Virus record (IMG/VR): IMGVR_UViG_2526164599_000011
Length of the DNA: 34,178 nucleotides
Strand: one strand, 5' to 3'
Source: a virus
Taxonomy: Duplodnaviria > Heunggongvirae > Uroviricota > Caudoviricetes
Below the pieces are notes generated by a model. That model did not search any database. It was not told where the DNA came from and worked only from the letters and a program-made list of their open reading frames with translations. Both the position numbers and the translations under genes were made by a program. Shown here piece by piece: positions 5,977 to 27,628 of this stretch (its first letter is position 1; every line of letters starts with the position of its first letter).

Positions 5977-6921
5977 ATGCCAACAGTAGTTTCACTTTTT
6001 TCTGGATGCGGTGGTTCCGATGCGGGGGTTCTGAGAGCTGGCTTTGATGTGCTTATGGCCAACGATATCTTGCCGTATGCGCGCGATGTTTATATTGCCA
6101 ATCATCCAGAAACTGATTACATTTTAGGCAATATTGCTGATGTAACTACTTTTCCTAAATCTGATTTGCTAGTAGGTTGTTATCCATGTCAGGGATTCAG
6201 CCAGGGTGGTGCGCGTAAGGCCGATCGAAAAATTAATACTCTTTATTTAGAGTTTGCTAGAGCTTTAAACAATATAAAGCCTAAAGCTTTTATAGTAGAA
6301 AACGTGTCTGGTATGGTTAGAAAAAACTTCGAGCATTTGTTATCTGACCAGATCAGGGTTTTTACTGAAGCAGGTTATGCTGTTTCAGCAAAAGTTTTGA
6401 ATGCGGCTGAATATGGAGTAGCGCAGGAAAGAAAAAGAATATTTATCGTAGGAATCCGTAATGATTTCAAAGTTAAGTACGAGTTCCCTCAGCCAACTCA
6501 TGGGCCGGCGACTGGCGTCAACTATGTTACTATTAAAGATGCTATAGGGCATTTACCTGAATGGCCAGAAGGTGAATTTTATGATATGGGGTTCCATTGG
6601 TATTATATGTCTCGCAATCGTCGCCAAGATTGGGATCAAATTTCAAAGACAATAGTTGCTAATGCAAGGCATATGCCGTTGCATCCTATCAGTCCTTCGA
6701 TGGAGAAAGTAAGAACTGATGAATGGAGGTTTGTTGAGGATCGGAGAGCTCGCAGATTCAGTTTTCGAGAGGCAGCACTATTACAAGGGTTTGAGGATCT
6801 AGTGTTTCCCGAAACAAATGCTGCAAGTCTTGGCATGAAATACACGGTGGTTGGTAATGCAGTGCCTCCGCCGCTTTTTGAAGCTGTAACGAAGGCATTG
6901 CCAATAGAATTATGGGATTGA
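5977..6921 (+). CDS. DNA (cytosine-5)-methyltransferase
   Basis: 314 aa with canonical C5-MTase motifs: FSGCGG (motif I, AdoMet binding), GCYPCQGFSQGG (motif IV, catalytic PCQ), ENV (motif VI), QERKR (motif VIII), GNAVPPPL near the C-terminus (motif X). Strong SD; gene is visibly more AT-rich than the phage backbone. Confidence 0.9.
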   Translation: MPTVVSLFSGCGGSDAGVLRAGFDVLMANDILPYARDVYIANHPETDYILGNIADVTTFPKSDLLVGCYPCQGFSQGGARKADRKINTLYLEFARALNNIKPKAFIVENVSGMVRKNFEHLLSDQIRVFTEAGYAVSAKVLNAAEYGVAQERKRIFIVGIRNDFKVKYEFPQPTHGPATGVNYVTIKDAIGHLPEWPEGEFYDMGFHWYYMSRNRRQDWDQISKTIVANARHMPLHPISPSMEKVRTDEWRFVEDRRARRFSFREAALLQGFEDLVFPETNAASLGMKYTVVGNAVPPPLFEAVTKALPIELWD

Positions 6922-6928
6922 TAAGCTA

Positions 6929-7921
6929 TTAAGGCTCTGGATTTAATGTATAAAGTTCTTCTTCAAATTCGCGAAACCAATCAGAGGTAGTTATCGCTTC
7001 CCATTGGTTTGCCTTATCAAGTAGATATATGATCCTCAACCTATCTAATAATAATACACCAGCGGTTGCATGTGTGCTTACCCATTCGCCATTTGCTTCC
7101 CGATAGAAAACAGGCGTGAACATTGTTGATGGATGCTGGAAAGCAATTTGGAAATAGGTGGTCAGTTTTAACACGTTAGCCTCTAATGTTTTGCTTGGCC
7201 ACCCTGTTTCTTGTGCACCACATTGACCAAGAATTCCATAGTTGCTAGTTTGACCATCAGGAAATTCCACTGTAGCAATTAGGTCAAACCCAGCATCACC
7301 AGATGTGGGAGCTTTATTTATTTCCCTTGTGTTTAAACTACAAACTCCAAGATCTTTTCCTAAAATTTGTAGAGCATTCCGAAGATTCGTTCCATAATAT
7401 TTTTGCCTATCATCGGAGTTAGCATCAAAAATTCTTACGGTGCCATGTGCAGGTAAGAGAGAAATCATTGCAACTTTACATACTCTGGCAAAGCTCTTTG
7501 CCCAACGTTGTGCTGCTCCTCTAATCGACTTAAAGGATCTAAGTCTAGAGCAACAAAGGAGAAAAACATATATTCTTTGTTGTTGGTTTAGATTTTCTTT
7601 AATAATTATCTCATCACCTGAAATTATAAATGGATATATCTTTCCAAGAGCGCTTTCTCTATATTCGAGTTGTGTCCAAACATCTTCTAGTTGCTCTTCA
7701 AAACGATCATTTCTCTCTGCGTCTCCATCAATTTCTTCTTCAAAATTACATTCTTCATCAATTTCTTCAACACTTGTCATGCCGAATTTTCTTACTGAAT
7801 CTAAATCATTTTTATGCAGAGAGTTACGTCCGATATAATTAATCACCGTGAGTAACTCGGCTAAATCTGCAAACAAATGGGGAGAGTTGGGATGCATAAC
7901 TCCTACTTCAAAAGTCATCAT
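6929..7921 (-). CDS. Hypothetical protein, family not recognised; convergent with the MTase, downstream partner of the ParB-like gene
   Basis: About 330 aa; GTG at 7924 then ATGs at 7921 and 7918; start overlaps the stop of the upstream ParB-like gene (TGA 7908-7910). Acidic N-terminal region (EEIDEECNFEEEIDGDAERNDRFEEQLED). Stop TAA at 6929-6931 is 7 nt from the MTase stop. AT-rich. Confidence 0.7.
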   Translation of the reverse strand: MMTFEVGVMHPNSPHLFADLAELLTVINYIGRNSLHKNDLDSVRKFGMTSVEEIDEECNFEEEIDGDAERNDRFEEQLEDVWTQLEYRESALGKIYPFIISGDEIIIKENLNQQQRIYVFLLCCSRLRSFKSIRGAAQRWAKSFARVCKVAMISLLPAHGTVRIFDANSDDRQKYYGTNLRNALQILGKDLGVCSLNTREINKAPTSGDAGFDLIATVEFPDGQTSNYGILGQCGAQETGWPSKTLEANVLKLTTYFQIAFQHPSTMFTPVFYREANGEWVSTHATAGVLLLDRLRIIYLLDKANQWEAITTSDWFREFEEELYTLNPEP

Positions 7922-9029
7922 CACCTCTGCTATTTTTCTCTGCTATTTCAGAACCTATAAGCTTAATATGTTTATTGATTCTTCGTGCTACTTCATGAGC
8001 CTGTCTATCATACTCTACTGTGGCAACCATGCCTGCTGCATCTATCAAAGCCGCTTCAACTTGATAAAGTAACTGGAGAAAGTCCTTAGTAATATCAGAT
8101 GTCAATTGGTAGGCCACTGCGAGTGGAGCCCCCATTCGGAATTGCTCCAATGCCTTAGGGCTACTAACAACAGCAGCTAATTCTCTTAAATTACGTGACT
8201 CTCCAACACGAGTTTTTTTATCCTCACCTTTTTTATATAACCACTCAGTTAGCTCTTTTATTTCTTTGTTCTTTAAGCTATTAGAGTTGATAATAGGATG
8301 ACTTGGTATTGTGTCTCCATCGTCTTCGATTGAAACTCCGACAAATTGGCCTAACCGCTCATCAGCAAGTGCTGTTGATAATACTGAAAATTTAATCGTT
8401 TCTTCATCTAGTTTTTCAATACCATAAAAATCATTTTCTTTAATGATTTCATACACCGCTAAAGCGTCTAGGTTACGCTTGATATGATCCCTACGACTGC
8501 CAATAGCTCTGGCAACCTCATAGTAGCGTAGCATCGGATCCTGATTTGCATTGGTATAATCAAAAAGCTGTTTAATATATCGAGCTTTTGATAAGGGCTC
8601 CCATTGTTTGACACCAGTAATATGTCTGAAACCAAGATACGGAAGAATCTCTTCTCTTGTTTGGCGCTCAATGACAGGAACACGATCGACTGTATGTTTT
8701 GCATTTGATGCAATTTCTCGTAGTCGAGCACTTGGATTTTCACATAGTGTCGGATCGCGTAATAATTTAACTGCGGATAGGCGACGGTTTCCTTCAACTA
8801 CAATGTACTTCCCCGGCGCGACACTGTCAGGAATGACAATCAATGGTTCTCCAGGGAAAAAACCATTTTCCGCAATAGCACTCATTAGATCTTCGATAGA
8901 TGTTGAGGTTGCTATGTAGTTAATCATTCCCAATTGGTCACGAGACACGCCTTCAGGAAGTCTTGGGTTTTCTGTGTCAAGTTCCAAATCATCTAGCGGA
9001 ACATAAAGTATTTCTGAATCAGCAATCAT
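7908..9029 (-). CDS. ParB/Srx-like N-terminal domain protein (ParB-type nuclease/NTPase fold), function unknown
   Basis: 373 aa; N-terminal ILYVPLDDLELDTENPR...GEPLIVIP...YIVVEGNRRLSAV matches the ParB box I / GxxRxxA box II pattern. SD GGAG 7-10 nt upstream of ATG at 9029. AT-rich; first gene of a two-gene leftward operon. Confidence 0.75.
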   Translation of the reverse strand: MIADSEILYVPLDDLELDTENPRLPEGVSRDQLGMINYIATSTSIEDLMSAIAENGFFPGEPLIVIPDSVAPGKYIVVEGNRRLSAVKLLRDPTLCENPSARLREIASNAKHTVDRVPVIERQTREEILPYLGFRHITGVKQWEPLSKARYIKQLFDYTNANQDPMLRYYEVARAIGSRRDHIKRNLDALAVYEIIKENDFYGIEKLDEETIKFSVLSTALADERLGQFVGVSIEDDGDTIPSHPIINSNSLKNKEIKELTEWLYKKGEDKKTRVGESRNLRELAAVVSSPKALEQFRMGAPLAVAYQLTSDITKDFLQLLYQVEAALIDAAGMVATVEYDRQAHEVARRINKHIKLIGSEIAEKNSRGDDDF

Positions 9030-9255
9030 CTGGATCTCCGTTGAACATGTCTACGAGAAGGAGCACAAAGTTATTTCATAACATGCAATATACTCATTCT
9101 GTAGCCATAAATGAATTATTCATGATGTAAGATTCGCGTTGATGTGCGTGAATTCGCAAGTAATTTTATAGCAAGGTTTGATTGGGTATCGTTAGCACTG
9201 GCGCGGTTTCAACGTATTCATGCACCTGCATTAAAACCGACCCATGAAGCGGGCG

Positions 9256-9274
9256 GGCGAGGCGGGGAAAGCAC
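9256..9274. other. Probable cos site (19-nt cohesive end of P2-type phages)
   Basis: GGCGAGGCGGGGAAAGCAC at 9256-9274 matches the P2 cohesive-end sequence as I recall it, and lies about 170 bp from the end of portal gene Q where P2 cos sits. Sequence identity is from memory and not verified. Confidence 0.6.
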
Positions 9275-9443
9275 TGCGCGCTGGCGGTGGTGCTGATTTT
9301 ATTTTTTCAGCGTCTGAGCGCGTCGTGATGGCGTTTAGATTGTTAGCCGGGGCGTTGGTGTGTCTGCGGGCTGTTTTGTGCGGTGGTGAGCGTGTGAGAG
9401 CGTGATGGCGGGTTGTAAAAAAGCCGCCCGCAGGCGGCGATGT

Positions 9444-10478
9444 TCAGCCGTTGTCAGTGTCCAGTGAGTAGTTTTTAAAGCGGATGACCTCCTGACCGAG
9501 CCAGCCGTTTATCTCGCGGATCCTGTCCTGTAACGGGATAAGTTCATTGCGGACAAAGACCTTTGCCACTTTCTCAATATCACCCAGCGACCCGACGTTC
9601 TCCGGCTTGCCACCCATCAACTGAAAGGGGATGCGGTGCGCGTCCAGCAGGTCAGCGGCGCTGGCTTTTTTGATATTAAAAAAATCGTCCTTCGTCGCCA
9701 CTTCACTGAGGGGGATAATTTTAATGCCGTCGGCTTTCCCCTGTGGGGCATAGAGAAACAGGTTTTTAAAGTTGTTGCGGCCTTTCGACTTGACCATGTT
9801 TTCGCGAAGCATTTCGATATCGTTGCGGTCCTGCACGGCATCGGTGACGTACATGATGTATCCGGCATGTGCGCCGTTTTCGTAATACTTGCGGCGGAAC
9901 AGCGTGGCCGACTCATTCAGCCAGGCAGAGTTAAGGGCGCTGAGATATTCCGGCAGACCGTACAGCTCCTGATTAATATCCGGCTCCAGCAGGTGAAACA
10001 CGGAGCCGGGCGCGAAAGGTGTCGGCTCGTTGAAAGACGGCACCCACCAGTAAACATCCTCCTCCACGCCACGACGGGTATATTTGGCCGGTGAGGTTTC
10101 CAGTCTGATGACCTTACCGGTGGTGCTGTAACGCTTTTCCAGAAACGCATTACCGAACACCAGAAAATCCAGCACAAAACGGCTGAAATCCTGCTGGGAA
10201 AGCCACGGGTGCGGGATAAACGTTGAAGCCAGAATATTACGTTTGACGTAAATCGGTGAGCTGTGATGCACGGCAGCACGCAGACTTTTTGCCAGGCCGG
10301 TAAAGCTGACCGGTGGCTCATACCATCTGCCGTTACTGATGCACTCGACGTAATCCAGAATGTCACGCCGGTCGAGTACCGGTACCGGCTCACCAAAGGT
10401 GAATGCCTCCATTTTCGGGGCGCTGGCGGTCATTGTTTTTGCCGCAGGTTGCGGTGTTTTCCCTTTTTTCTTGCTCAT
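9444..10478 (-). CDS. Q: Portal protein (P2 gpQ-like)
   Basis: 344 aa, identical in length to P2 gpQ; leftward, adjacent to cos, followed by the terminase large subunit with start/stop overlap at 10478-10480. Confidence 0.9.
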   Translation of the reverse strand: MSKKKGKTPQPAAKTMTASAPKMEAFTFGEPVPVLDRRDILDYVECISNGRWYEPPVSFTGLAKSLRAAVHHSSPIYVKRNILASTFIPHPWLSQQDFSRFVLDFLVFGNAFLEKRYSTTGKVIRLETSPAKYTRRGVEEDVYWWVPSFNEPTPFAPGSVFHLLEPDINQELYGLPEYLSALNSAWLNESATLFRRKYYENGAHAGYIMYVTDAVQDRNDIEMLRENMVKSKGRNNFKNLFLYAPQGKADGIKIIPLSEVATKDDFFNIKKASAADLLDAHRIPFQLMGGKPENVGSLGDIEKVAKVFVRNELIPLQDRIREINGWLGQEVIRFKNYSLDTDNG

Positions 10479-17191: not shown

Positions 17192-17622
17192 TGACTGTGC
17201 TGATTGTGTTGTTATCGCTGGCGGTGGCCGGTCTGTTTCTGGTGAAACACAAAAATGCCAGCCTGCGCGCCTCGCTGGACAGGGCGAACAATGTCGCCAG
17301 TGGGCAGCAGACGACCATCACCATGCTGAAAAATCAGCTTCATGTTGCACTCACCAGGGCAGACAAAAACGAGCTGGCGCAGGTGGCACTGCGTCAGGAA
17401 CTGGAGAACGCCGCGAAGCGTGAAGCACAGCGCGAGAAAACCATCACGAGGTTACTCAATGAAAACGAAGATTTTCGCCGCTGGTACGGTGCTGACCTGC
17501 CTGATGCTGTGCGCCGGTTGCACCAGCGCCCCGCCTGCACCGACGCCAGTGATTGTCCACAACGCCTGCCCGAAAGTGAGTCTTTGCCCGATGCCGGGCA
17601 GCGACCCGCAGACGAACGGTGA
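17179..17622 (+). CDS. lysB: LysB, Rz-like inner-membrane spanin
   Basis: 147 aa with N-terminal TM segment (LMTVLIVLLSLAVAGLFLV) and a coiled-coil-like periplasmic part; downstream of lysA. Confidence 0.8.
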   Translation: MSRLMTVLIVLLSLAVAGLFLVKHKNASLRASLDRANNVASGQQTTITMLKNQLHVALTRADKNELAQVALRQELENAAKREAQREKTITRLLNENEDFRRWYGADLPDAVRRLHQRPACTDASDCPQRLPESESLPDAGQRPADER

Positions 17623-17749
17623 TTTAAGTGCCGATATCCGGCAGCTTGAGAACGCGCTGGCGCGCTGTGCCAGCCAGGTAAAAATGATTAAACACTGTCA
17701 GGACGAAAACGATGCTCAAACCCGACAGCCTGCGCAGGGCGCTGACTGA
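17459..17749 (+). CDS. lysC: LysC, Rz1-like outer-membrane lipoprotein spanin, overlapping lysB in another frame
   Basis: ATG at 17459 inside lysB in a different frame; lipoprotein signal with lipobox (LTCLMLCAGC) followed by a proline-rich segment (PPAPTP); extends into the start of R. Confidence 0.7.
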   Translation: MKTKIFAAGTVLTCLMLCAGCTSAPPAPTPVIVHNACPKVSLCPMPGSDPQTNGDLSADIRQLENALARCASQVKMIKHCQDENDAQTRQPAQGAD

Positions 17750-21106: not shown

Positions 21107-22110
21107 GTGAGGAATAATGAGCACAAAATTCAGAACCGTTATCACCACTGCCGGTGCAGCAAAGCTGGCAGCGGCAACCGCGCCGGGAGGGCGGAAGGTC
21201 AACATTACCACGATGGCCGTCGGGGATGGCGGTGGTAAATTGCCTGTCCCGGATGCCGGACAGACCGGGCTTATCCACGAAGTCTGGCGACATGCGCTGA
21301 ACAAAATCAGCCAGGACAAACGAAACAGTAATTATATTATCGCAGAGCTGGTTATTCCGCCGGAGGTGGGCGGTTTCTGGATGCGTGAGCTTGGCCTGTA
21401 CGATGATGCGGGAACGTTAATTGCCGTGGCGAACATGGCCGAAAGTTATAAGCCAGCTCTTGCCGAAGGCTCAGGGCGTTCGCAGACCTGCCGCATGGTC
21501 ATCATCGTCAGCAGTGTGGCCTCAGTGGAGCTGACCATTGACACCACAACGGTGATGGCGACGCAGGATTACGTTGATGACAAAATTGCAGAGCACGAAC
21601 AGTCACGACGTCACCCGGACGCCTCGCTGACCGCAAAAGGTTTTACTCAGTTAAGCAGTGCGACCAACAGCATGTCTGAAATGCTTGCCGCAACGCCAAA
21701 AGCCGTTAAGACGGTAATGGATGAAACGAACAAGAAAGCGCCATTAAACAGCCCTGTACTGACCGGAACGCCAACGACGCCAACTGCGCGACAGGGAACG
21801 AATAATACTCAGATCGCAAACACGGCTTTCGTTATGGCCGCGATTGCCGCCCTTGTAGACTCGTCGCCTGACGCACTGAATACGCTGAACGAGCTGGCGG
21901 CGGCGCTGGGCAATGACCCGAATTTTGCTACCACCATGACTAATGCGCTTGCGGGTAAGCAACCGAAAGATGCTACCCTGACGGCGCTGGCGGGGCTTGC
22001 TACTGCGGCAGACAGGTTTCCGTATTTTACGGGGAATGATGTTGCCAGCCTGGCAACCCTGACAAAAGTCGGGCGGGATATTCTGGCTAAATCGACCGTT
22101 GCCGCCGTTA

Positions 22111-22115
22111 TCGAA
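22111..22115. repeat. Target-site duplication (TCGAA), left copy, flanking IS2
   Basis: TCGAA immediately 5' of the IS2 left terminus; identical 5-mer immediately 3' of the right terminus; IS2 makes 5-bp duplications. Confidence 0.8.
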
Positions 22116-22206
22116 TAGACTGGCCCCCTGAATCTCCAGACAACCAATATCACTTAAATAAGTGATAGTCTTAATACTAGTTTTTAGACTAGTCATTGGA
22201 GAGCAG

Positions 22207-22572
22207 ATGATTGATGTCTTAGGACCGGAGAAACGCAGACGGCGTACTACACAGGAAAAGATCGCTATTGTTCAGCAGAGTTTTGAACCGGGAATGACGG
22301 TCTCCCTTGTTGCCCGGCAACACGGTGTGGCAGCCAGCCAGTTATTTCTCTGGCGCAAGCAATACCAGGAGGGAAGTCTTACTGCTGTGGCCGCAGGAGA
22401 GCAGGTCGTTCCTGCCTCTGAACTTGCTGCTGCCATGAAGCAGATTAAAGAACTCCAGCGCCTGCTCGGCAAAAAAACGATGGAAAATGAACTCCTTAAA
22501 GAAGCCGTTGAATACGGGCGTGCAAAAAAGTGGATAGCGCACGCGCCCTTATTGCCCGGGGATGGGGAGTAA
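22207..22572 (+). CDS. insC: IS2 transposase OrfA (InsC, HTH DNA-binding component)
   Basis: 121 aa from ATG 22207; sequence [52 protein letters not shown] is recognisable as IS2 InsC. Confidence 0.9.
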
Positions 22573-23435
22573 GCTTAGTCAGCCGTTGTCTCCGGGTGTC
22601 GCGTGCGCAGTTGCACGTAATTCTCAGACGAACCGATGACTGGAAAGATGGTCGCCGCAGCCGTCACTCAGATGATACGGATGTGCTTCTCCGTATACAC
22701 CATGTTATCGGAGAGCTGCCCACGTATGGTTATCGTCGGGTATGGGCGCTGCTTCGCAGACAGGCCGAACTTGATGGTATGCCTGCGATCAATGCCAAAC
22801 GTGTTTACCGGATCATGCGCCAGAATGCGCTGTTGCTTGAGCGAAAAACCGCTGTACCGCCATCGAAACGGGCACATACTGGCAAAGTGGCCGTGAAAGA
22901 AAGCAATCAACGATGGTGCTCTGACGGGTTCGAGTTCCGCTGTGATAACGGAGAAAAACTGCGAGTCACGTTCGCGCTGGACTGCTGTGACCGTGAGGCA
23001 CTGCACTGGGCAGTCACTACGGGCGGCTTCGACAGTGAAACAGTACAGGACGTAATGCTGGGAGCGGTGGAACGCCGCTTCGGCAACGAGCTTCCGGCGT
23101 CTCCAGTAGAGTGGCTGACGGATAATGGTTCATGCTACCGGGCTAATGAAACACGGCAGTTTGCCCGGATGTTGGGGCTTGAACCGAAGAACACGGCGGT
23201 GCGGAGTCCGGAGAGTAACGGCATAGCAGAGAGCTTCGTGAAAACGATAAAGCGTGACTACATCAGTATCATGCCTAAACCAGACGGGTTAACGGCAGCA
23301 AAGAACCTTGCAGAGGCGTTCGAGCATTATAACGAATGGCATCCGCATAGTGCACTGGGTTATCGCTCGCCACGGGAATATCTGCGGCAGCAGGCCAGTA
23401 ATGGGTTAAGTGATAACAGGTGTCTGGAAATATAG
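22530..23435 (+). CDS. insD: IS2 transposase OrfB (InsD, DDE catalytic domain), normally expressed as an OrfAB fusion by -1 frameshift
   Basis: 301-aa ORF with DDE-type integrase-core sequence (WCSDGFEF...DNGSCY...ESNGIAESF); A AAA AAG slippery heptamer at 22524-22530 in the overlap with insC. Confidence 0.9.
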
Positions 23436-23446
23436 GGGCAAATCCA

Positions 23447-23451
23447 TCGAA
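23447..23451. repeat. Target-site duplication (TCGAA), right copy, flanking IS2
   Basis: Identical to the 5-mer at 22111-22115, directly abutting the IS2 right terminus. Confidence 0.8.
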
Positions 23452-24475
23452 TATCTCGGTTTACAGGAAACGGTAAACCGAGCCGGGAACGCCGTGCAAA
23501 AAAATGGCGATACCTTGTCCGGTGGACTTACTTTTGAAAACGACTCAATCCTTGCCTGGATTCGAAATACTGACTGGGCGAAGATTGGATTTAAAAATGA
23601 TGCCGATGGTGACACTGATTCATTCATGTGGTTTGAAACGGGGGATAACGGCAATGAATATTTCAAATGGAGAAGCCGCCAGAGTACTACAACAAAAGAC
23701 CTGATGAATCTTAAATGGGATGCTTTGTATGTTCTTGTCAATGCCATTGTAAATGGCGAAGTCATATCAAAATCAGCAAACGGCCTACGTATTGCTTATG
23801 GTAATTACGGATTCTTTATTCGTAATGATGGTTCAAATACATACTTCATGTTGACAAACTCCGGTGACAACATGGGGACTTATAACGGATTAAGGCCATT
23901 ATGGATTAATAACGCTACTGGCGCTGTTTCGATGGGGCGTGGCCTTAATGTTTCAGGGGAGACGCTTTCAGACCGTTTTGCTATTAACAGCAGTAATGGT
24001 ATGTGGATTCAGATGCGCGATAACAACGCTATCTTTGGGAAAAATATAGTTAACACTGATAGCGCTCAGGCGTTGCTTCGCCAGAATCACGCTGACCGCA
24101 AGTTCATGATAGGTGGACTGGGGAACAAGCAATTTGGCATCTACATGATTAATAACTCAAGGACAGCCAATGGCACCGATGGTCAGGCGTACATGGATAA
24201 TAACGGTAACTGGCTTTGTGGCTCGCAAGTTATTCCCGGCAACTATGGCAATTTTGATTCCAGATATGTGAAAGATGTTCGACTTGGTTCACAGCAATAT
24301 TATGGAGTTAACAACTGGCAAACATGGAATTTCCAGTGCCCGTCAGGTCATGTATTGTCTGGTATTAATGTTCAGGATACAGGGTCCAACTCTGCCGATA
24401 ATATAGCGGGCGTTTATTACAGACCCGTTCAAAAGTATATAAATGGCACCTGGTATAATGTAGCGAGCGTTTAAT

Positions 24476-25003
24476 ATGATGCACTTAAAGAACATAAAAG
24501 CGGGTAACGCTAAAACACTGGAACAGTATGAGTTAACAAAGAAACACGGAGTTATCTGGCTTTACTCTGAGGACGGAAAAAACTGGTATGAGGAAGTGAA
24601 GAACTTTCAGCCAGACACAATAAAGATTGTTTACGATGAAAATAATATTATTGTCGCTATCACCAGAGATGCTTCAACGCTTAATCCTGAAGGTTTTAGC
24701 GTTGTTGAGGTTCCTGATATTACCTCCAACCGACGTGCTGACGACTCAGGTAAATGGATGTTTAAGGATGGTGCTGTGGTTAAACGGATTTATACGGCAG
24801 ATGAACAGCAACAACAGGCAGAATCACAAAAGGCAGCGTTACTTTCCGAAGCGGAAAGCGTTATTCAGCCACTGGAACGCGCTGTCAGGCTGAATATGGC
24901 GACGGATGAGGAACGTGCACGACTGGAGTCATGGGAACGCTACAGCGTTCTGGTCAGCCGTGTGGATCCTGCAAATCCTGAATGGCCGGAAATGCCGCAA
25001 TAA
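24476..25003 (+). CDS. G: Tail fibre assembly chaperone (P2 gpG-like)
   Basis: 175 aa (P2 gpG 175 aa); immediately downstream of H. Confidence 0.85.
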
Positions 25004-25218
25004 GTTGTATGAGCTCTAGTGTGGGCTTACATATCTATGGCACAGAGTAAAGCCTAATCTGACAGTCCACTCTGTGCCAGAGGTGGGCATTGCTGATGTC
25101 ATAAAATATTATGCCAGCAGCCGTCTTAGGGGAGTGTTTACATTTCAATGATCGGGTATGATCTCGGCATGTTAATGGTTTATTACTAAATGCTTGCGCC
25201 TATCTTTATGGAGGAGTA

Positions 25219-26118
25219 ATGAGTGGTATTCGTATAACTCAGGCTATTGATAACAATCAGATTTTAGTCAATGTAAATACTTTTAATTATAGTGTTAATC
25301 CCTATCCACTCAAATGTCCTGACCCAAATTGCTCTGCTCATTTGGTGTATGTCAAAAGCCATATTCGTCGGAGTTTTAATAAAACCTTGCATATCCCCGC
25401 CTTCTTTAGACTGGAAAAAAATTTCACGCATGACAAATTATGTCAGTATGGAACTTCAGGATTGAATACAATTTATGCAAGTGATTCCAGTCATGATATC
25501 AGCCGTGCGCTTGCCACAGGTAATAATATATTCCGTATACATATACTCGATGAAGATGATATCTCTAAATTAAGCAGAAAAGCTGCAGCTATGCAGGCAA
25601 ATCCACCTTCTGATACTACAGACCGCGTTTATGTCAAGAGAGGTCGGAAAGCCCCCTATGTGAAGAACATGGATAGCTTACGGGAGATCTATGAATATGG
25701 AAAAGCTCACCCCAACAAGAGAAACAGCATAAAAATTGTTACTGGAACAAGTACTGTAACGTGGTCTGATTTTTTCTATGAAACAACGCAGTTAGAACGA
25801 TTGTCAACTTACCTCCAGAAAGTAAAAATAGCTCAGGTTGCTGTAATTATGAAAGTGCATGTGGCGAGAATCCCTATGGCGAAATTTAATTATCGACACT
25901 TCATTGAAGGTTCGCCAATGAGGATAAAAGGGGGCTTTAATATATATCCTACGATTCAATTAGGAAATGTTACTCCAAAATTATTTCCGTTGAGTAGCAT
26001 TGTCATGGTACTCGGTAAATTTACTATTCCAACAAATAGAAAAATGATAATGGATCCAACATTTGAGCGTGAAGTCAGAACCATAGTTTCTAGTGAAGAG
26101 CAAGTGCTAATTCTTTGA
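25219..26118 (+). CDS. Hypothetical 299-aa protein, family not recognised; AT-rich cargo gene at the P2 Z/fun position
   Basis: ATG at 25219 with strong SD GGAGG; 299 aa; much more AT-rich than the flanking tail genes, with AT-rich non-coding DNA on both sides (25004-25218 and 26119-26437). Contains CPDPNCSAH near the N-terminus; no family assigned by eye. Confidence 0.7.
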   Translation: MSGIRITQAIDNNQILVNVNTFNYSVNPYPLKCPDPNCSAHLVYVKSHIRRSFNKTLHIPAFFRLEKNFTHDKLCQYGTSGLNTIYASDSSHDISRALATGNNIFRIHILDEDDISKLSRKAAAMQANPPSDTTDRVYVKRGRKAPYVKNMDSLREIYEYGKAHPNKRNSIKIVTGTSTVTWSDFFYETTQLERLSTYLQKVKIAQVAVIMKVHVARIPMAKFNYRHFIEGSPMRIKGGFNIYPTIQLGNVTPKLFPLSSIVMVLGKFTIPTNRKMIMDPTFEREVRTIVSSEEQVLIL

Positions 26119-26312
26119 AATCAAGAGGATTTGGCTCGGATGATTATGTGCGGCTTATAACCATAACGTAATGAGCGGATTTTTCTACTGCTTTTTATCA
26201 TTTTGGTTAACTAAAACTAATCTCTGCTCCTCGCTCAAAGCAGACTGTCAGATTTGATAGCGTTTTGGCTATGTAAATTGTCAGTCGGAAAATGAGTGAG
26301 TACAAATCAGGA

Positions 26313-26342
26313 CAGGCGGGCGAATTGCCTGCCTTTTCTTTA
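26313..26342 (+). terminator. Putative rho-independent terminator downstream of the 299-aa cargo gene
   Basis: Short GC stem (CAGGC...GCCTG, about 26313-26332) followed by TTTTCTTT. Confidence 0.4.
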
Positions 26343-26437
26343 TCTGTTGTTTCATCCACTGACCAGCCAGGTCAAATAGCGTCTCATGCTCTGCACAACA
26401 GAAAATAGTTGCACCCATTAACCACGGAGTTAAACGG

Positions 26438-27628
26438 ATGAGCGACTATCATCATGGCGTGCAGGTGCTGGAGATTAACGACGGCACCCGCGTCATTTCC
26501 ACTGTATCCACCGCCATTGTCGGCATGGTCTGCACGGCCAGCGATGCGGATGCGGAAACCTTCCCCCTCAATAAACCGGTGCTGATTACCAATGTGCAGA
26601 GCGCAATTGCAAAGGCTGGTAAAAAAGGCACGCTGGCGGCATCGTTGCAGGCCATCGCTGACCAGTCAAAACCGGTCACCGTTGTTGTGCGTGTGGAAGA
26701 CGGCACCGGCGACGACGAGGAAACGAAACTCGCGCAGACCGTATCCAATATCATCGGCACCACCGACGAAAACGGTCAGTACACCGGACTGAAAGCCCTG
26801 CTGGCGGCGGAGTCGGTAACCGGTGTTAAACCGCGTATTCTCGGCGTGCCGGGGCTGGATACCAAAGAGGTGGCTGTTGCACTGGCATCAGTCTGTCAGA
26901 AGCTGCGCGCTTTCGGGTATATCAGCGCATGGGGCTGTAAAACCATTTCCGAGGTGAAAGCCTACCGCCAGAATTTCAGCCAGCGTGAGCTGATGGTCAT
27001 CTGGCCAGATTTCCTCGCATGGGATACGGTCACCAGTACCACCGCCACCGCGTATGCCACCGCCCGTGCGCTGGGTCTGCGCGCTAAAATCGACCAGGAG
27101 CAGGGCTGGCATAAAACGCTGTCCAATGTCGGGGTAAACGGTGTTACCGGCATCAGTGCCTCTGTATTCTGGGATTTGCAGGAGTCCGGCACCGATGCTG
27201 ACCTGTTGAACGAGTCAGGTGTCACAACGCTGATTCGCCGTGACGGTTTCCGCTTCTGGGGTAACCGTACCTGCTCTGATGACCCGCTGTTCCTCTTTGA
27301 AAACTACACCCGCACCGCGCAGGTGCTGGCCGACACGATGGCTGAGGCGCACATGTGGGCGGTGGACAAGCCCATCACCGCAACGCTGATTCGCGACATC
27401 GTTGACGGCATCAATGCCAAATTCCGTGAGCTGAAAACAAACGGCTATATCGTGGATGCGACCTGCTGGTTCAGCGAAGAATCCAACGATGCGGAAACCC
27501 TCAAGGCCGGAAAACTGTATATCGACTACGACTATACACCGGTGCCTCCTCTTGAAAACCTGACCCTGCGCCAGCGTATTACCGATAAATACCTGGCAAA
27601 TCTGGTCACCTCGGTTAACAGCAATTAA
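26438..27628 (+). CDS. FI: Contractile tail sheath protein (P2 gpFI-like)
   Basis: 396 aa (P2 gpFI 396 aa); SD GGAG upstream; first gene of the FI-FII-E-T-U-D operon. Confidence 0.9.
   Translation: MSDYHHGVQVLEINDGTRVISTVSTAIVGMVCTASDADAETFPLNKPVLITNVQSAIAKAGKKGTLAASLQAIADQSKPVTVVVRVEDGTGDDEETKLAQTVSNIIGTTDENGQYTGLKALLAAESVTGVKPRILGVPGLDTKEVAVALASVCQKLRAFGYISAWGCKTISEVKAYRQNFSQRELMVIWPDFLAWDTVTSTTATAYATARALGLRAKIDQEQGWHKTLSNVGVNGVTGISASVFWDLQESGTDADLLNESGVTTLIRRDGFRFWGNRTCSDDPLFLFENYTRTAQVLADTMAEAHMWAVDKPITATLIRDIVDGINAKFRELKTNGYIVDATCWFSEESNDAETLKAGKLYIDYDYTPVPPLENLTLRQRITDKYLANLVTSVNSN

Follow-up and report, generated by a model that had tools for sequence, protein, structure and literature searches.

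A single-gene cargo with predicted zinc and OB-fold modules at the Z/fun locus of a P2-like prophage

The P2-like prophage analysed here, a stretch of 34,178 nucleotides (IMG/VR record IMGVR_UViG_2526164599_000011, Caudoviricetes; hereafter the window), carries one AT-rich gene of 299 codons between its tail-fibre assembly gene G and its tail sheath gene FI. The encoded protein is 100% identical to orf44/gp44 of phage Wphi (NP_878219), which occupies the same position, and we refer to it as gp44. Its family spans Gammaproteobacteria, Bacillota and Bacteroidota in about 150 clusters, its C-terminal domain is predicted to adopt an oligonucleotide/oligosaccharide-binding (OB) fold, and members recur beside defence genes and in the swap hotspots of mobile genetic elements from unrelated taxa, a pattern established qualitatively. 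We tentatively interpret gp44 as a stand-alone, non-enzymatic zinc and OB-fold protein that binds nucleic acid and acts as an anti-phage exclusion or abortive factor of the lysogen, a reading that in its entirety falls a little short of probable. The Z/fun hotspot and the Wphi orf44 sequence are already known; the family description and the predicted architecture are new.

The open reading frame (ORF) encoding gp44 is a real gene under strong purifying selection. Its orthologues in E. coli, Serratia, Proteus, Morganella, Leclercia and a metagenome all have exactly 299 codons, and pairs drawn from these six contexts show ratios of nonsynonymous to synonymous substitution rates (dN/dS) between 0.06 and 0.22, with dS values of 0.6-2.9. 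Moreover, the G+C (GC) content of the orthologues stays at 33-41% whatever the host.

Distribution, conservation and predicted fold of the gp44 family

Near-identical copies of gp44 are found only at the G-FI site of P2-like phages. Just three of 50,697 phage records encode the protein, namely those of Wphi, Yersinia phage HQ103 (an ORF 100% identical to the window protein) and a record named 'Peduovirus P2' (99.7% identical). Eight further P2-like loci with the gene order G-gp44-FI are present in IMG/VR, and the exact protein sequence occurs on 835 contigs of the protein collection, where it is annotated as hypothetical everywhere. Among complete E. coli genomes, the flank sequence is matched in 1033 of 5426 and the full insert in 115 of 5426, always on the chromosome.

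More distant relatives are numerous. A word-indexed search returned 12 clusters of 65-99% identity, all from Enterobacterales and all about 299 amino acids long. When 1.84 billion representatives were searched exhaustively with a profile, this set grew to 151 proteins at E <= 1e-3, each representing a cluster at 50% identity and nearly all having lengths of 295-330 amino acids. Scanning genomes with a sub-clade alignment that used the motif HPICIEG as its anchor revealed additional members (Bacillus, Thalassobacillus, Peribacillus, Psychrobacillus, Clostridium, Capnocytophaga and Mesorhizobium), and tblastn added others (Vibrio, Pseudoalteromonas, Klebsiella and Bacillus plasmids). No fused effector domain is recognisable in the longer relatives, and the one NeuB/SAF match among them looks like a chimeric gene call.

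Conservation was assessed in an alignment of 71 sequences that are 16-73% identical to the window protein. The original prediction, made from the sequence of the window, could not assign the protein to a family, and the comparisons with defence profiles and with P2 Fun(Z) likewise gave no match. Specifically, Pfam and NCBIfam contain no match for the window protein and produce only noise for the 71 relatives. No model in PADLOC-DB v2.0.0, including its PD-T4, PD-T7, PD-Lambda, HEC and PDC candidates, reaches E <= 10 with the window protein, and the same models give six scattered single-member matches among the 71 relatives (E from 3e-4 to 0.04). Sequence searches of the PDB with close and deep profiles also found no match. 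The exception is phrog_7195, a PHROGs family catalogued with function unknown, which fits residues 1-299 of the 299 (E = 5.8e-218) and is the only PHROG matched by all 71 members. We found no paper that names WP_000014362 or phrog_7195, where validation under another name is possible, and neither the gp44 accession nor its peptide strings are present in the DefensePredictor supplements.

Only four residues are invariant in the 71 sequences: C33, C38, H71 and C75, arranged as C-x4-C ... H-x3-C. Five others (F63, Y147, W182, F185 and Q295) are kept at 90% or more, and F-R-L strands recur twice, at residues 63-65 and 105-107. The alignment contains no conserved histidine, aspartate, glutamate or lysine outside the four putative metal ligands. 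A CoiA-like or HNH zinc nuclease, which the C...C...H...C pattern had suggested, was tried and rejected, because no profile matched beyond sub-threshold zinc-finger noise.

AlphaFold 2 (AF2) supplied with the 71-sequence alignment yields a model with a mean predicted local distance difference test score (pLDDT) of 91.8 and a predicted template modelling score (pTM) of 0.84, superseding a model from a shallow 13-sequence alignment (pLDDT 47). The model consists of an N-terminal beta-rich region, a helical middle (residues ~112-202) and a C-terminal six-strand barrel (~204-299). The two ligand pairs, C33/C38 and H71/C75, flank two beta-hairpins, and the four residues are predicted to bind zinc.

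The predicted C-terminal domain contains a five-stranded closed beta-barrel with OB topology. Foldseek searches of the PDB and BFVD returned OB-fold matches to single-stranded DNA (ssDNA) binders and tRNA binders, with template modelling scores (TM) to the query of 0.28 or less, and since these matches agree with the barrel assignment, the OB-fold is supported at the level of predicted fold. No close structural match for the whole gp44 architecture was found in either library. The family is strongly basic, with a median isoelectric point (pI) of 9.2 and 99% of members above pI 8, which lends indirect support to the binding of ssDNA or RNA. The window protein itself has a pI of 9.8 (9.76) and a net charge of +16, and it lacks any hydrophobic or transmembrane segment.

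A clade difference was observed at the first strand of the OB-fold. Most of the family carries an extra H-P-I-C-I-E-G motif there, in which H, P and C never vary among 23 sequences, and the clade of the window protein has A-Q-V-A-V-I-M in its place (residues 205-211, codons 25831-25851). One possibility is that the motif represents an additional site for a metal or ligand, lost from the enterobacterial clade.

Mobility, genomic company and proposed function

The original prediction placed the gene at the P2 Z/fun locus, and this placement agrees with the annotation of P2, where fun(Z) lies between G and FI. The G-FI site is the second defence-enriched locus of P2, where Vassallo et al. 2022 (PMC9519451) describe three newly validated systems in addition to fun, and the same hotspot was rediscovered in the iLund4u preprint (10.1101/2024.10.15.618418). 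Comparison of the locus across related phages, as the original prediction had proposed, reveals at least seven unrelated cargos at this site in sequenced P2-like phages. The cargos of P2 (fun), pro147, L-413C, vB_EcoM-12474III (which has a SMEK domain) and vB_YpM_46 are antisense to the late genes, and those on the late-gene strand are gp44 and the cargo of 720R8. This orientation contrast may reflect different expression logic, with late read-through of gp44 and the 720R8 cargo in place of an independent lysogenic promoter.

The cargos are bracketed by an inverted repeat. Its left arm, which carries an indel in P2, precedes different cargos at each of the nine P2-like loci compared, and both arms bracket unrelated AT-rich cargos of 1.07-2.1 kb in seven of the nine (the window, Wphi, P2, R18C, L-413C, vB_EcoM-12474III and vB_YpM_46); pro147 and 720R8 have only the left arm at the threshold used. 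An 11-mer inverted repeat in 1.5 kb is at chance level (shuffled sequences contain about one on average), and what is notable is its location exactly at the swap boundaries rather than its rarity. The arms could serve as a recombination anchor for cargo swapping.

Outside the P2 hotspot, gp44 relatives also occupy accessory positions. An 88% identical homologue resides in a P22/lambda-like prophage (CI/Cro, lambda-P and P22 portal genes), within the accessory region between the replication and lysis genes. On its 122-kb contig (JGI metagenome 3300007747) this homologue is located between DUF968/GIY-YIG and HNH/holin genes, and a second 299-amino-acid ORF at that locus, considered as a paralogue of gp44, proved unrelated. 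The 88% homologue indicates that gp44 has moved between unrelated temperate phage types, always into accessory slots. Homologues of 65-73% identity are located in integrase islands and at prophage ends. No partner gene is conserved across about 20 contexts, in agreement with the single-gene cargo originally proposed. The leaders upstream of the orthologues also differ between contexts, each being AT-rich with its own Shine-Dalgarno (SD) sequence; no promoter that travels with the gene was seen when these upstream regions were compared, and in two orthologue contexts a terminator directly follows the gene. Since neither a neighbour nor a leader is conserved, the mobile unit is the single gene.

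Recognisable defence genes are present within a few genes of gp44 relatives in about 7 of about 20 independent contexts and hallmarks of mobile genetic elements in at least 14 of 20, a qualitative association based on raw counts. For example, the 73% identical Serratia homologue lies in an integrase island directly after a Type I restriction-modification (R-M) system, and the Psychrobacillus member directly follows HsdM-HsdS-HsdR-YgjP, also Type I R-M. The Billgrantia member is positioned between AbiTii/SIR2-STAND and kinases/PLD, the Thalassobacillus member adjoins a DEAD helicase, GmrSD and an integrase, and a Vibrio plasmid member sits in an array with AbiH, GIY-YIG, a HEPN-associated protein and large NTPases. 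Homologues are also found at an icd-proximal prophage end of Morganella, adjoining a reverse transcriptase (RT) and AAA_15 ATPase pair, in a smpB-adjacent island with Pox_D5, a portal fragment and a 561-amino-acid RT, in an AlpA/FRG islet of Leclercia, and in an islet of the window protein's own clade with H-NS, Rpn and Peptidase_C14 genes. Other distant members are carried by elements with a Mu-like transposase or a serine recombinase; the only annotated near neighbours of the Capnocytophaga member are an SbcC/RAD50-like ATPase and a DUF389 protein, and two further islets are uninformative. Together, this neighbourhood pattern is the classic signature of defence cargo.

One of the plasmid-borne members may have decayed. 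The annotation of Vibrio tubiashii pFP31 divides its copy into two short ORFs (9001-9378 and 9562-9900 of the extracted locus), and this copy is probably a frameshifted pseudogene. The short cassettes around it (HEPN-associated protein, 5'-nucleotidase, GIY-YIG and AbiH), all on one strand, form a series that resembles an integron-like array of defence cassettes.

According to the mechanism we propose, gp44 would be a basic, cytosolic protein expressed in the lysogen. It would bind nucleic acid made by an infecting phage, most likely ssDNA or replication or recombination intermediates, with tRNA or other RNA as less likely targets. Binding would block the replication of the infecting phage, and the outcome for the lysogen would be superinfection exclusion or abortive-type protection conferred by one gene. 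The components of this proposal differ in strength. It is probable that gp44 binds nucleic acid of some kind. Its assignment as a defence gene, which is based on position and guilt by association, we favour by a small degree, and sequestration of ssDNA as the specific mechanism seems doubtful. A broader conjecture, which we also regard as unlikely, is that gp44 founds a phylum-spanning family of single-protein immune factors that lack an enzymatic domain, in which the CCHC module and OB-fold would recognise phage single-stranded nucleic acid, or complexes of DNA with single-stranded DNA-binding protein, and arrest replication through sequestration or filament formation.

Several observations weigh against a protective role. 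Defence by a protein with no enzymatic activity is harder to rationalise than defence by a nuclease or NADase, no PADLOC v2 model fits gp44, no reported phenotype for it was found in the literature, and the association with defence genes is of the qualitative kind described above. In addition, gp44 shares the strand of the late operons at a site whose other cargos, fun(Z) included, are mostly encoded on the minus strand, the hairpin that precedes gp44 lacks a T-run, and the sole candidate promoter for expression in the lysogen is a weak consensus match. Transcription of the gene could therefore fall in the late lytic phase, for the benefit of the phage and not of the lysogen. Finally, three contexts are bacteriocin or polymorphic-toxin loci, and recurrence beside DNase toxins is not accounted for by an anti-phage function.

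In the strongest rival reading, gp44 would be an accessory that serves the phage: a nucleic-acid binder, expressed late or constitutively, that protects or processes phage DNA, a factor that counters restriction or sensors, or a DNA-binding regulator. The gene is oriented as the late V and F operons, most other cargos of the site are on the opposite strand, and late read-through into gp44 that ends at the backbone terminator is plausible because the gene is co-oriented and the preceding hairpin is without a T-run. Moreover, OB-fold and zinc architectures are typical of replication and repair accessory proteins, and gp44 has no catalytic or toxic domain. However, only the three phage records mentioned above carry the gene, all at one hotspot, and the family is mostly chromosomal or plasmid-borne, beside R-M or Abi genes far from phages. 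Anti-defence genes are also usually small and expressed early, and gp44 is undamaged here although an insertion sequence (IS) breaks the tail-fibre gene H of the same prophage. Overall, we consider a phage-serving function possible and clearly less plausible than a defensive assignment as such. If it were correct, the hotspot would be of mixed purpose and position alone would over-predict defence.

A role in conflict between bacteria, for instance as an orphan immunity or accessory factor against DNase bacteriocins or polymorphic toxins that would benefit the host by lysogenic conversion, is improbable. Members do reside beside a colicin/pyocin DNase in the colicin/pyocin region of Proteus, adjoining LXG-colicin-DNase polymorphic toxins in two genomes of the Bacillus cereus group, and next to NucA/NucB on a Bacillus plasmid, which makes four members in all beside DNase toxin genes, and a DNA-binding protein could shield DNA. 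However, immunity proteins to colicin DNases are helical and about 85 amino acids long, one of them (PF01320) is already present in the Proteus locus, most contexts are without a toxin, and there is no conserved cognate pair. Anti-phage islands are a better match to the P2, P22-like, R-M and Abi contexts.

The remaining alternatives are refuted, homology to Fun(Z) or Tin at the level of sequence and profile and a junk ORF by conservation. The original prediction had left open whether the protein is a fun homologue, and descent from Fun(Z) or Tin with the same job might be suspected because Fun(Z) occupies the same locus and all three are AT-rich, non-essential single genes; this is contradicted by BLASTP against Fun(Z) (NP_046777; best E = 3.6), by hhalign with the 71-sequence profile (probability 0.24% for Fun(Z) and 0.15% for Tin, NP_046797), by length (299 against 528 and 253 amino acids, respectively) and by the antisense orientation of Fun(Z), so that it retains almost no credibility. 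The idea that the ORF is spurious, or is decaying within AT-rich junk, is equally negligible; the base composition, the hypothetical annotation everywhere and the lack of domain matches might speak for it, but it fails on the dN/dS values, the 299 codons kept in six contexts, the 151 representatives, the confidence of the model (pLDDT 92) and the strong SD sequence.

Should gp44 prove protective, it would represent a new defence family whose predicted architecture, a zinc module and an OB-fold without catalytic residues, points to a mode of action other than that of the common nuclease, NADase or membrane effectors, and defence by nucleic-acid binding alone could be tested with one small gene. 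About one in five complete E. coli genomes contains a P2-like prophage, and several defence systems from the two hotspots of these prophages have been validated already.

Anatomy of the G-FI locus and the rest of the prophage

Between G and FI there is one substantial ORF, that of gp44, on the plus strand (Table 1). The original prediction of an AT-rich insert carrying this ORF between G and the sheath gene is borne out by the ORF call, the base composition and the Pfam matches of the flanking genes. GC content is 0.36-0.40 over positions 25100-26300, compared with 0.52-0.59 in the flanking late genes and 51.8% for the whole window. The insert had been drawn as the entire G-FI interval (25004-26437); the AT-rich insert is real, but the variable cargo comprises only ~25084-26221, because homology to P2 (NC_001895) ends at ~25083 on the left and restarts at ~26222 on the right. 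The cargo thus begins immediately after a conserved hairpin that follows G. A scan of the interval with Rfam found no retron-like or other non-coding RNA (best E = 0.6, 17 bits against a cutoff of 128 bits).

The downstream terminator-like hairpin, which had been described as part of the insert, is real in its stem and T-run and is stable (dG -17.9 kcal/mol, z = -3.0). However, it belongs to the backbone common to P2 and to phages with other cargo, as do the pF region and the ribosome-binding site of FI. Because it lies inside this conserved backbone, the alignment identifies it as a P2 feature rather than gp44's own terminator; situated just upstream of the late promoter pF, it is predicted to insulate that promoter and is not cargo. 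The pF elements were placed by aligning the annotated P2 features 17555-17583 and 17626-17628 with the window, a mapping by inference.

The strong SD sequence noted originally is present as GGAGGAG, 2 nt before the ATG. A candidate sigma-70 promoter lies at the left edge of the cargo, and the scan that found it yielded 10 sites where 6.4 are expected, which makes it weak evidence.

Table 1. Features at the G-FI locus and in the neighbouring tail-fibre region of the window.
Feature	Position	Strand	Basis or detail
Gene H (tail fibre), N-terminal part	21117-22118		
Insertion sequence ORFs	22162-22572 and 22530-23435		
Gene H, C-terminal part	23410-24474		
Gene G, tail-fibre assembly, left conserved flank	24476-25003	+	Pfam Caudo_TAP, E = 1.6e-37; named G in Wphi
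Backbone hairpin directly after G	25035-25082	+	14-nt arms, 20-nt loop, without T-run; dG -22 kcal/mol, z = -1.8; also in P2
Left arm of the inverted repeat bracketing the hotspot	25056-25080	.	Core AATCTGACAGT; 25 nt, 80% complementary to 26230-26254
Variable AT-rich cargo, ~1.14 kb, 37.3% GC	~25084-26221	.	Alignments with P2 and Wphi; GC content
Candidate sigma-70 promoter, TGGGCA-17-TATTAT, left edge of cargo	25084-25112	+	Consensus scan, 9/12 matches
Shine-Dalgarno sequence GGAGGAG	25210-25216	+	Read from sequence
gp44-family gene, 299 amino acids, ATG start	25219-26118	+	ORF call; phrog_7195 match; identity to Wphi orf44
Predicted zinc-binding beta module, residues 31-77 with C33, C38, H71, C75	codons 25309-25449	+	Invariance in 71 sequences; AF2 model
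Predicted OB-fold beta-barrel, residues 204-299	codons 25828-26115	+	
Right arm of the inverted repeat, in the resumed backbone	26230-26254	.	Core ACTGTCAGATT
Terminator-like hairpin of Rho-independent type, backbone element	26313-26342	+	9-bp G+C stem and T-run; aligns to P2
Late promoter pF region	26345-26414	+	Ogr site ~26345-26370, transcription start ~26412-26414; inferred by alignment to P2
Gene FI, tail sheath, right conserved flank	26438-27628	+	Pfam Phage_sheath_1, Phage_sheath_1C, Gp18_domIII_N

Immediately upstream of G, the tail-fibre gene H (window 21117-24474) is split by an IS3-family element with two overlapping transposase ORFs. The same H region is uninterrupted in E. coli PSUO2, E4 and APEC E19035. 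Strains GN03139 and GN03551 match the whole H-IS-G region (100% of the query at 98.6% identity) in three pieces that span ~900 bp more than the query, and in TW10590 a distinct IS3 element, oppositely oriented, lies close to this position. The prophage in the window probably has a tail-fibre defect, and even so its gp44 is intact.

The other P2 hotspot, between the replication gene A and the portal gene Q (window 5977-9029), is also loaded. It encodes a C5 cytosine methyltransferase, whose best PADLOC matches are DruM2/MTase_II (E = 1e-113), an unannotated ORF of 331 amino acids on the minus strand, and a ParB-N protein of 373 amino acids that matches PD-Lambda-5_A models over its N-terminal ~190 residues (E = 1.6e-28). 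From these matches, the A-Q cargo may be a PD-Lambda-5-like variant.

Comparison with known systems

Wphi orf44/gp44 and phrog_7195 are the same gene as the one in the window, with no difference, and this prior cataloguing supplies a name rather than a mechanism. Hypothetical genes in the P2 hotspots are generally expected to be defensive. The validated cargo of these hotspots comprises Old, Tin, PD-T4-5, PD-T4-9/CmdTAC, PD-T4-10, PD-Lambda-5, DprA-PRTase and Rst_DUF4238. Like gp44, these are swappable prophage cargo, which in those systems protects the lysogen (PMC9519451, PMC9122126, 10.1101/2024.10.15.618418). Unlike them, gp44 has no recognisable enzymatic or toxin domain, and it matches none of them among the PADLOC v2 hidden Markov models.

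P2 Fun(Z), which is associated with exclusion of T5 and with sensitivity to fluorodeoxyuridine (FUdR), resembles gp44 in its G-FI site, in the same inverted-repeat arms and in being an AT-rich, non-essential single gene. The two differ in that Fun(Z) has 528 amino acids and is antisense to the late genes, whereas gp44 has 299 and lies on the late-gene strand.

The OB-fold proteins closest to gp44 include ssDNA binders that combine an OB-fold with a zinc module (the internal domain of MCM10, DNA-binding domain C of RPA70 (DBD-C) and the MCM N-terminal domain), the anticodon-binding OB domains of class IIb aminoacyl-tRNA synthetases and HIN-200 domains. These matches share 7-18% identity over ~100-135 of the 299 residues, values that do not imply common descent. 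The arrangement also differs, since the predicted zinc module of gp44 is N-terminal, with a helical domain between it and the OB-fold, instead of being inserted in the OB-fold or placed directly after it. In principle, the action proposed for gp44 would be similar to nucleic-acid sensing of the HIN or RPA type, with gp44 as a bacterial defence complete in one protein and distributed on P2-like, P22-like and island elements.

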